From a virus (taxonomy: Duplodnaviria > Heunggongvirae > Uroviricota > Caudoviricetes), in IMG/VR virus record IMGVR_UViG_2541047436_000009: DNA of 4,968 nucleotides; one strand, 5' to 3'. A program made the position numbers and the translations under genes. Positions 1,420-1,916 of the stretch are shown piece after piece. The number at the start of each line of letters is the position of its first letter. The stretch's first letter is position 1. A model generated the notes under the pieces. It saw only the letters and a list, made by a program, of their open reading frames with translations. It was not told where the DNA came from and made no database searches.

Positions 1420-1693
1420 GGTGTCCTCAACGGGGGAAGGAATAACCCCGCCATACTTACCGCCGCGCCATTTCGCGGATTGCCACAACCGGAAGCGCAC
1501 GGTCGAATTAAATTTAACGACGGCTCTAAGGGAGAAGGACTTCGCCGTGCACTTTCGTGTTATGCCCTGACTTTTCAGGGATATATCCTTTCAGTAAACT
1601 GTCAGTGCCGGATTCTTATCTGTGTCCGGCGCACGACCACACGTAGCAGCGTGTTGGTCTCCATTTTTAATTCAGCCCTTAATGGAGGATAAA

Positions 1694-1879
1694 ATGCCAA
1701 ACAAACCATGCCCTGCCTGTAACGCTCTTTCTGGCTTTTTAGAGAAGGGCGGTTATTACATTTTTAACTGTCCAGAACATGTTGAATTTCATATATCAAA
1801 ACTTGACAGTATCATTACAAAGCCAAATCAGTATCAGTCTGATTTACTGAATAAAGAGTTAAACGCCGCCCGAGATTAA
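1694..1879 (+). CDS. Small zinc-ribbon protein, 61 aa (CPAC-x18-CPEH), hypothetical; oriented opposite to the surrounding leftward operon
   Basis: ATG at 1694 with GGAGG 5 nt upstream; the 85-aa ORF-track version adds an N-terminal extension with no RBS. Product MPNKPCPACNALSGFLEKGGYYIFNCPEHVEFHISKLDSIITKPNQYQSDLLNKELNAARD has a C2-CH metal-binding signature. The gene is markedly more AT-rich than its neighbours. No homolog recognised. Confidence 0.5.
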   Translation: MPNKPCPACNALSGFLEKGGYYIFNCPEHVEFHISKLDSIITKPNQYQSDLLNKELNAARD

Positions 1880-1916
1880 GGGCGTAGTGGCCCATTAAAA
1901 ATATTGCAAAGACCAA

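Follow-up and report, generated by a model that had tools for sequence, protein, structure and literature searches.

Does a short open reading frame (ORF) that runs against the early operon of a lambdoid prophage represent a gene, and, if it does, what kind of gene occupies such a position? The question was raised by a 4,968-nucleotide (nt) stretch of the Caudoviricetes record IMGVR_UViG_2541047436_000009, hereafter the window, which comprises the early-left and immunity region of a lambdoid prophage of the Escherichia coli DicF/dicB type. A first-pass annotation, made from the letters alone, had picked out a plus-strand ORF of 61 amino acids (aa) with a zinc-ribbon signature and had suggested that it was variable cargo in the slot where the Rac prophage carries sieB. 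Our results indicate an ordinary but genuine prophage accessory gene, which is already in the databases and of which the window carries a degenerate allele. Newly found are the diagnosis of a truncation, a conserved convergent partner, and a variable slot equivalent to that of sieB with a shared platform for translation initiation.

The zinc-ribbon gene and its C-terminal tail

The gene and the signals at its two ends are listed below, with positions counted from the first letter of the window; related loci are cited by L numbers.

1622-1879, plus strand: maximal ORF, beginning at a GTG
1684-1688, plus strand: Shine-Dalgarno (SD) sequence GGAGG, 5 nt before the ATG at 1694
1694 (ATG) to 1877-1879 (TAA), plus strand: zinc-ribbon ORF, 61 codons and stop (ECs_1061 / WP_001133046.1; PHROG 10133)
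1877-1879, plus strand: premature stop TAA in place of TCA (Ser62), the codon found in L011, L035, L039 and UMNF18 alike
1880-1936, plus strand: in-frame remnant of the lost tail, GRSGPLKILQRPTIVELD*, 18 codons, identical to the tail of L039

The 61-aa product is MPNKPCPACNALSGFLEKGGYYIFNCPEHVEFHISKLDSIITKPNQYQSDLLNKELNAARD, in which the metal ligands form the motif C6-P-A-C9 ... C26-P-E-H29. The ORF is antisense to the leftward operon bearing DicF and dicB, and the first-pass description of a plus-strand frame with a strong ribosome-binding site (RBS) and a CPAC...CPEH signature inside the leftward early operon was accurate: it runs from ATG 1694 to TAA 1879 behind GGAGG at 1684-1688, and DicF and DicB are encoded on the minus strand. 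The clearly higher AT content also claimed for it held only in part. Its GC content of 37.6% is slightly lower than that of its surroundings (neighbour gene 40.3%, dicB 40.1%, DUF1482 gene 40.6%, DicF block 51.2%) but barely differs from that of the protein genes (40-41%). The same annotation had recognised no homolog; the ORF is, however, annotated in RefSeq as WP_001133046.1 and in O157 Sakai as ECs_1061, and it belongs to PHROG 10133, a family of no assigned function whose profile matched residues 1-61 with an E value of 7.3e-48 and matched the 80-aa and 91-aa relatives with 8e-27 and 3e-15. The RBS block AATGGAGGATAAAATGCC is conserved, even at a locus where a different cargo gene stands behind it. 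An older annotation of EDL933 places a 102-aa plus-strand coding sequence (CDS) at 1387-1692, directly upstream of the ORF, and in UMNF18 the zinc-ribbon CDS is lengthened upstream by PGAP to 135 aa; both probably arise as artefacts, the conserved DicF block being open in this frame. In the 48%-identical relative described below, the protein begins with MPQK and the upstream DNA is unrelated.

The length of the ORF does not by itself exceed chance, as 57 ORFs of at least 30 aa are present in the window. A chance frame on the antisense strand of an AT-rich stretch would find many companions there, antisense ORFs of 30-130 aa being common, and would agree with the lack of a match to any known domain. 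This explanation is rejected by the pattern of conservation, and we consider it hardly credible. The ratio of non-synonymous to synonymous rates (dN/dS; Nei-Gojobori, first 61 codons) in the ORF frame was 0.17 between the window and UMNF18, 0.12 between UMNF18 (L002) and L014, and 0.11-0.22 for other pairs; the five other frames all contained stops and gave 0.25-5.2, so values of 0.1-0.2 are confined to the ORF frame. Twenty-eight columns are invariant across the family, including C6, C9, C26 and H29. A homolog with 48% identity lies in an unrelated DNA context, and the strong SD sequence is accompanied by published ribosome-profiling (Ribo-seq) signal. Because purifying selection is specific to the frame, the ligands are invariant and both RNA sequencing (RNA-seq) and Ribo-seq signals have been published, we have very little doubt that the zinc-ribbon ORF is a real gene.

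The family is narrow. Of 5,426 complete E. coli genomes, 386 carry the segment 1660-1916 (257 nt) with at least 99% identity, and most of these are from O157, O103, O121 and other Shiga toxin-producing E. coli (STEC). A second type of homolog, 66% identical, was seen in UMNF18, in Salmonella and on several contigs from metagenomes and IMG/VR. An exhaustive HMMER search yielded one further true relative, P0005, a 48%-identical protein of 91 aa from a non-E. coli enterobacterial prophage; two long repetitive proteins from the same search were dismissed as spurious. Only two near-identical clusters were returned by a word-index search of 5.8 billion proteins, and only three near relatives by a metagenome scan. 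No family member was detected in the scan of GTDB species representatives, and tblastn of the 61-aa protein and of P0005 gave no match in 50,697 phage genomes.

The copy in the window is almost certainly a truncated allele. The first-pass annotation had taken the 61-aa ORF for the gene, while the native form is 80 aa and is cut short here by a nonsense codon. All diverged homologs and the closest intact copies (L011, L035 and L039) are full-length at 80 aa, or 91 aa in P0005, and intact 80-aa alleles are carried by L002, L011, L012-14, L027-32, L035, L037-39 and L041; the window copy does not have this architecture of about 80 aa and lacks the C-terminal 19 residues. The last 20 nt of the tail remnant overlap the 3' end of the convergent neighbour gene. 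Full-length members share the tail pattern ASG..P...L.RP..VE(L/F), which is kept down to the 48%-identical relative, and the dN/dS of the tail elsewhere in the family is 0.14-0.25. Compared with L011, L035, L039 and an outgroup, the window lineage has undergone three changes, S16L, G30V and S62*, all non-synonymous, with no synonymous change; G30V adjoins the ligand H29, and S16L and G30V both affect otherwise conserved positions. By our own estimate, three non-synonymous changes out of three have a probability of roughly 0.03 given a family dN/dS near 0.15, which suggests that constraint on the window lineage has been relaxed. Judged from the sequence, the window copy is probably decaying or impaired.

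It has to be weighed whether the 61-aa form is instead a working unit with a dispensable C-terminal tail, in which case the copy would be functional and not decaying. The tail has been lost a second time, by a frameshift after K60 in the lineage of L015 and L036, so two independent losses fall at almost the same place (codon 62 in the window), and since a second lineage does without the tail, residues 1-60 may form the essential core. The PHROG 10133 profile has only 65 positions and matches residues 1-61, the tail is disordered in the AlphaFold2 (AF2) model, ribosome footprints are still found on ECs_1061, and the allele reaches the 386 genomes mentioned above. This copy number, however, reflects the clonal spread of one prophage segment, and all copies of the nonsense allele lie beside a frameshifted neighbour gene. 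The conservation of the tail to the 48%-identical relative, its dN/dS, and the three non-synonymous changes, two of them at conserved positions near the metal site, also argue against a functional 61-aa unit, which we regard as somewhat unlikely.

The convergent neighbour and the variable slot

The zinc-ribbon ORF had been described as a free-standing insert, but it is inherited together with, and overlaps, the 3' half of a convergent ydfC-like gene. The neighbour and the block on the other side of the ORF are as follows.

1917-2455, minus strand: ydfC-like gene with a PHROG 1363 N-terminal domain and a 'type A' C-terminal domain
2186-2192, minus strand: T7 run (A7 on the coding strand; A8 in the intact allele), a 1-nt deletion that causes a frameshift
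1357-1693: conserved block from DicF to the ORF start, corresponding to the DicF precursor (minus strand) and to the 5' region of the ORF (plus strand)

In the window the neighbour is split into a frame of 129 aa (2066-2455) and a C-terminal frame of 118 aa that ends at 1917, and genes with an intact type-A C-terminal half encode 179-186 aa. The N-terminal domain (MEFKDL...FTGLY; PHROG 1363, 2151, 9419 and others) is widespread, and the C-terminal half is variable. On this evidence the ydfC-like gene of the window appears to be a frameshift pseudogene, although a homopolymer of this length could in principle permit some slippage. RefSeq records only the 129-aa part, as a normal CDS.

The frameshifted neighbour accompanies the nonsense allele in 12 of 12 copies (window, L001, L006, L019-L026 and L040), which together represent one clonal segment, and beside the 80-aa alleles the neighbour is intact in all but one case. 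At every examined locus with the zinc-ribbon gene, this gene lies on the strand opposite to the early-left operon and its 3' end overlaps the type-A neighbour, by 20 nt in the window type and by 44 nt in the UMNF18 type. The link between the two genes is supported mainly, and to a limited degree, by the retention of the pair in a distant element (L007-L010) with different flanking genes, which has neither DicF nor the MEFKDL N-terminal domain. There the 48%-identical zinc-ribbon gene faces a gene for a type-A domain homolog (E 2e-12, 33% identity), in L007 a stand-alone protein of 135 aa, and the convergent genes overlap by 119 nt. That the zinc-ribbon protein works with this neighbour is a tentative proposal, possible but short of an even chance. 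The joint decay of both genes was considered as proof of a functional pair and was down-weighted, as the nonsense copies form one clonal segment and L036 is a counterexample. A type II toxin-antitoxin pair found no support: the genes are convergent with overlapping 3' ends and not a co-directional operon, and neither gene matched a Pfam or NCBIfam model, known toxin and antitoxin families included.

Related prophages differ in what lies between the DicF-precursor block and the N-terminal half of the ydfC-like gene, both of them conserved: the stretch holds one of four unrelated ORF families or none.

Window: zinc-ribbon gene, PHROG 10133
K-12 Qin and phage Tritos: no plus-strand ORF
Strain 08-00022 (L003): 69-aa ORF, PHROG 4274
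L016: 168-aa protein with a coiled coil and a C-terminal zinc-ribbon-like part (CxxC...CPxC), PHROG 1244
L004: truncated relative of the L016 protein
Phage mEp460: 66-aa ORF, PHROG 34441, overlapping the 3' end of a different ydfC-like variant

The expectation of a variable cargo locus was thus confirmed, with PHROG 10133, 4274, 1244 or 34441, or nothing, in the same place. The products of PHROG 4274, 1244 and 34441 share strand and slot with the window gene; they are unrelated to it by sequence and have no assigned function. The PHROG 4274 ORF (L003 2524-2550) and the zinc-ribbon gene (window 1682-1708) have the same upstream sequence, the same RBS and the same first five codons (MPNKP) and then diverge completely, which places an apparent recombination junction just past the start of the reading frame. 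The conserved block of L004 stops at this point too, and no ORF follows. A relationship between the zinc ribbon and the C-terminal ribbon of PHROG 1244 was not convincing, the match covering only 11 residues (E 0.011 in a single comparison); PHROG 1244 ends with NGFFIHYCPSC, and the corresponding segment here is GGYYIFNCPEH.

The statement that Rac carries sieB on the opposite strand in the equivalent slot agreed with the gene order and strands of Rac, where sieB lies opposite to the operon between kilR/kilS and the DUF1391 gene ydaF and overlaps its leftward neighbour by 4 nt at the 3' end. In Rac, lambda and P22, as in the window, an opposite-strand gene of the early-left operon is placed between DUF1391/ydaG-type genes and a pair consisting of a small RNA (sRNA) and a division inhibitor, kilS-kilR in Rac and DicF-dicB in the window. 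It is therefore very probable that the slot is variable and equivalent to the sieB slot of Rac. The occupants themselves differ: SieB belongs to PHROG 6399 and has no sequence relationship with PHROG 10133, and the SieB of Rac is a membrane protein of 162 aa, whereas the zinc-ribbon protein is soluble, 80 aa long and without a hydrophobic segment. With the morons of lambdoid phages the gene shares presence or absence among otherwise collinear prophages and orientation opposite to the operon; its expression signal in lysogen culture and its GC content slightly below that of its surroundings may point the same way. It differs from them in that its promoter is only predicted and no terminator is predicted, and in that it is no clean insertion, as its 3' end is common to the neighbour gene and its 5' end to the conserved DicF block.

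Expression and a possible role

The protein is soluble and near neutral (isoelectric point 6.0-8.9, no hydrophobic segment). The AF2 model (pLDDT 72.7) has four beta strands in residues 7-39, a helix at 50-66 and the disordered tail, so the predicted architecture would be four strands with a CPxC...CPxH site, followed by a helix and the conserved tail. Because its charge is near neutral, a protein target would be favoured over nucleic acid. Searches with Pfam and NCBIfam gave nothing above threshold for the ORF, its relatives, the neighbour or the alternative cargos; Zn_ribbon_TFIIB and Zn_ribbon_RRN7 of Pfam reached at best 13-15 bits against cut-offs of 22-27, for one 80-aa relative only, and had no match to the window protein. 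No PADLOC-DB defence model matched the ORF, the 80-aa and 91-aa relatives or the neighbour, the best E values (0.007 or worse) being at chance level, and sequence and profile searches of the PDB gave E values of 0.1 or worse. The top Foldseek match in the PDB was ZifS (TTHA0897), which is not significant (E 0.68, TM 0.27) and for which no homology is claimed; like the window protein, it is short and has no recognisable feature other than a four-ligand zinc ribbon. Homology to the zinc-binding protein YdaE of Rac was considered and dropped, as no alignment was obtained. A literature search by locus tag, accession and PHROG identifier found no match in main texts.

Expression of the truncated copy was reported for a lysogen of O157 Sakai by Hücker et al. 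2017 (PMC5597208, S2 Table), with RNA-seq and Ribo-seq values of ECs1061, in reads per kilobase per million, of 12.2 and 68.2 in lysogeny broth (LB), 33.8 and 30.8 in brain-heart infusion (BHI) and 9.6 and 0.7 under stress. S4 Table of the same study gives a BPROM promoter 122 bp upstream of the start and an SD free energy (dG) of -6.3 kcal. The consensus match in the window is this BPROM site:

1572-1600, plus strand: predicted weak sigma-70 promoter, TTTTCA (1572), 17-nt spacer, TAAACT (1595-1600)

It lies inside the conserved DicF-precursor block, and a stricter scan did not recover it. A transcript start near 1675, as had been anticipated, found no support; the only consensus match there, TTAATT-17-TAAAAT, was rejected since transcription would begin within the ORF. 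We consider it likely that the gene is expressed in lysogens.

A possible mode of action can be outlined, with the gene as a moron-type gene that is expressed in the lysogen and encodes a soluble zinc-ribbon binding protein, 80 aa in native form and possibly partnered with the neighbour; we hold this account in about even balance. As long as pL is repressed in a lysogen, transcription of the gene would start from the weak predicted promoter inside the DicF-precursor block. Its product would bind another macromolecule, a protein more likely than a nucleic acid, through the zinc ribbon and the tail, and the type-A domain of the convergent neighbour is the leading candidate. Because the neighbour gene would yield an early-lytic product, the zinc-ribbon protein may be a modulator or antidote supplied by the lysogen. 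Once pL becomes active, expression of the zinc-ribbon gene would be counteracted by convergent transcription and antisense pairing, in analogy to P22, where the sas antisense RNA opposes sieB; sieB, too, is a prophage-expressed gene, and its transcript is necessarily antisense to those from pL (PMC12197685). A more elaborate proposal, which we think doubtful, is that the 80-aa protein and the opposite-strand type-A domain constitute a hitherto undescribed module of two convergent genes whose 3' ends overlap. The lysogen would produce one partner and the other would come from pL after induction or infection, with transcriptional collision and antisense pairing as the switch, and the module might be an antidote/effector or sensor/effector pair that lambdoid prophages use in the sieB slot. 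Unrelated cargo ORFs might then be swapped behind a constant expression platform consisting of promoter, RBS and first codons (MPNKP).

Several observations weigh against the account of a lysogen-expressed, partnered binding protein. The independent support for the pair comes essentially from one distant element (L007-L010), and the link to the neighbour could be mere physical linkage, as overlapping 3' ends are inseparable by recombination and the flanks are conserved recombination anchors. In L016 a type-A neighbour is paired with a different opposite-strand gene, and in L036 an intact neighbour stands beside a zinc-ribbon gene with a frameshifted tail; the AF2 model of the neighbour (pLDDT 44.6) was too poor for a fold search. 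On the side of expression, the promoter is only a weak consensus match, and no entry for the zinc-ribbon gene occurs among the EDL933 Cappable-seq starts listed in the part of that source considered. No T-tract terminator follows the ORF, only a 5-bp hairpin at 1927-1942, and none is given in S4 Table of PMC5597208. The RNA-seq and Ribo-seq data are from bulk cultures in which the leftward genes ECs1058 and ECs1059 also give signal (PMC5597208), so a fraction of the cells may have been induced.

The broken pairing in L016 and L036 would suit a stand-alone exclusion or defence moron, directed against incoming phages or a host target, for which the association with the neighbour is genetic linkage only. 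Slot and orientation are those of sieB in Rac, and PHROG 6399 (SieB) is classed as moron; the slot carries several unrelated families of small ORFs, and the expression signal in lysogen culture fits as well. We nevertheless consider this unlikely, as no PADLOC defence model matched, the protein is not a membrane protein as SieB is, the family is very narrow and absent from the 50,697 deposited phage genomes, and the pair with overlapping 3' ends is kept in the L007 element, where the flanking recombination anchors are absent. A mainly cis-acting role, in which plus-strand transcription collides with leaky read-through from pL, to which it is antisense, so that the toxic DicF and dicB stay silent in the lysogen and the protein is secondary, would account for the position of the predicted promoter and the whole 5' region within the conserved DicF-precursor block, and for different cargo ORFs with the same RBS and first codons, which suggest that the expression platform is the fixed part; antisense control also has a precedent in this region in sas/sieB (PMC12197685). 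Frame-specific purifying selection and the invariant ligands show, however, that the protein matters. K-12 Qin and phage Tritos have DicF-dicB without a plus-strand ORF, L007 has the gene without DicF, and, in the part of the Cappable-seq source considered, no plus-strand start is listed for the gene. A cis role of this kind is very improbable.

The results leave the current view of these prophages in place. A concrete variable slot is defined in lambdoid prophages of the DicF/dicB type, equivalent to that of sieB and holding at least four uncharacterised families of small proteins, and such slots are the usual place of exclusion and host-modulating genes. The conserved convergent overlap with one neighbour domain provides a testable partner hypothesis. 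Caution is required with the widespread O157/STEC copy (ECs_1061): as this allele is truncated and its neighbour frameshifted, functional studies should be based on intact 80-aa alleles, for instance from UMNF18 or L035.

The surrounding prophage region

The remaining features of the window are as follows.

Right of the repressor, plus strand: cro-like, YdaT-like and replication genes
3068-3544, minus strand: RacR-type repressor
2597-2830, minus strand: DUF1391/ydfA gene
2467-2637, minus strand: ydfB-like ORF
1305-1356, minus strand: DicF sRNA, downstream in the leftward operon (Rfam, 76.9 bits)
931-1122, minus strand: dicB cell-division inhibitor gene, downstream in the leftward operon (Pfam DicB)
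743-934, minus strand: DUF1482 gene
Left of the DUF1482 gene, minus strand: exonuclease gene, end only

The window is a mosaic, in which a left arm identical to Sp4 (O157:H7 Sakai) and CP-933M (EDL933) is joined to a RacR-type immunity region. The whole window was covered above 85% in none of the 5,426 complete E. coli genomes, the best coverage being 85%; among the intact relatives found that likewise have a 158-aa repressor at this position, L035 is the closest. A query of 1500-2100, which spans part of the DicF-precursor block, matched about 2,900 of the 5,426 genomes, mostly only partially, and in the alignment with K-12 the similarity extends to about 1650.

Transcription starts in this region were mapped in EDL933 by Cappable-seq (PMC10469882), a source of which a part is covered here. 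A primary 5' end on the minus strand was given at CP008957 position 1253115 (window about 1358) in one condition, 2 nt upstream of the 5' end of DicF, which would mean that DicF can arise from a start of its own in addition to being processed from the operon transcript. On the plus strand an antisense start inside the ydfC-like gene, at EDL933 1254075 (window about 2318), was listed in 8 of 8 conditions, with further starts at 1254217 and 1254274. According to these entries, rightward antisense transcription persists within the leftward operon.

The RacR-type repressor gene is flanked by five copies of the palindrome TAGGC-N5-GCCTA (2935-2975 and 3571-3638), two on the left side and three in the interval up to the cro-like gene, and these look like operator sets of the OL and OR type. 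Inside the replication-organiser gene, GTCACG repeats with 10-nt spacing form two clusters (4597-4660 and 4871-4930), which appear iteron-like, as expected for a lambdoid origin within an O-type gene. At the position equivalent to window 1290-1370, UMNF18 (L002, about 2130-2200) and 08-00022 (L003, about 2130-2200) have a related terminator-like hairpin, with the 5' part of DicF absent or altered. No DicF was detected at that position in either strain by Rfam at its gathering threshold, and the hairpin may be a variant sRNA with another seed. In strain 08-00022 a C4 antisense RNA (79 bits) and an isrK-like RNA (65 bits) were also detected on the minus strand at L003 1727-1915, under the 5' end of an inserted Rha-family gene, which separates dicB from the DicF position.

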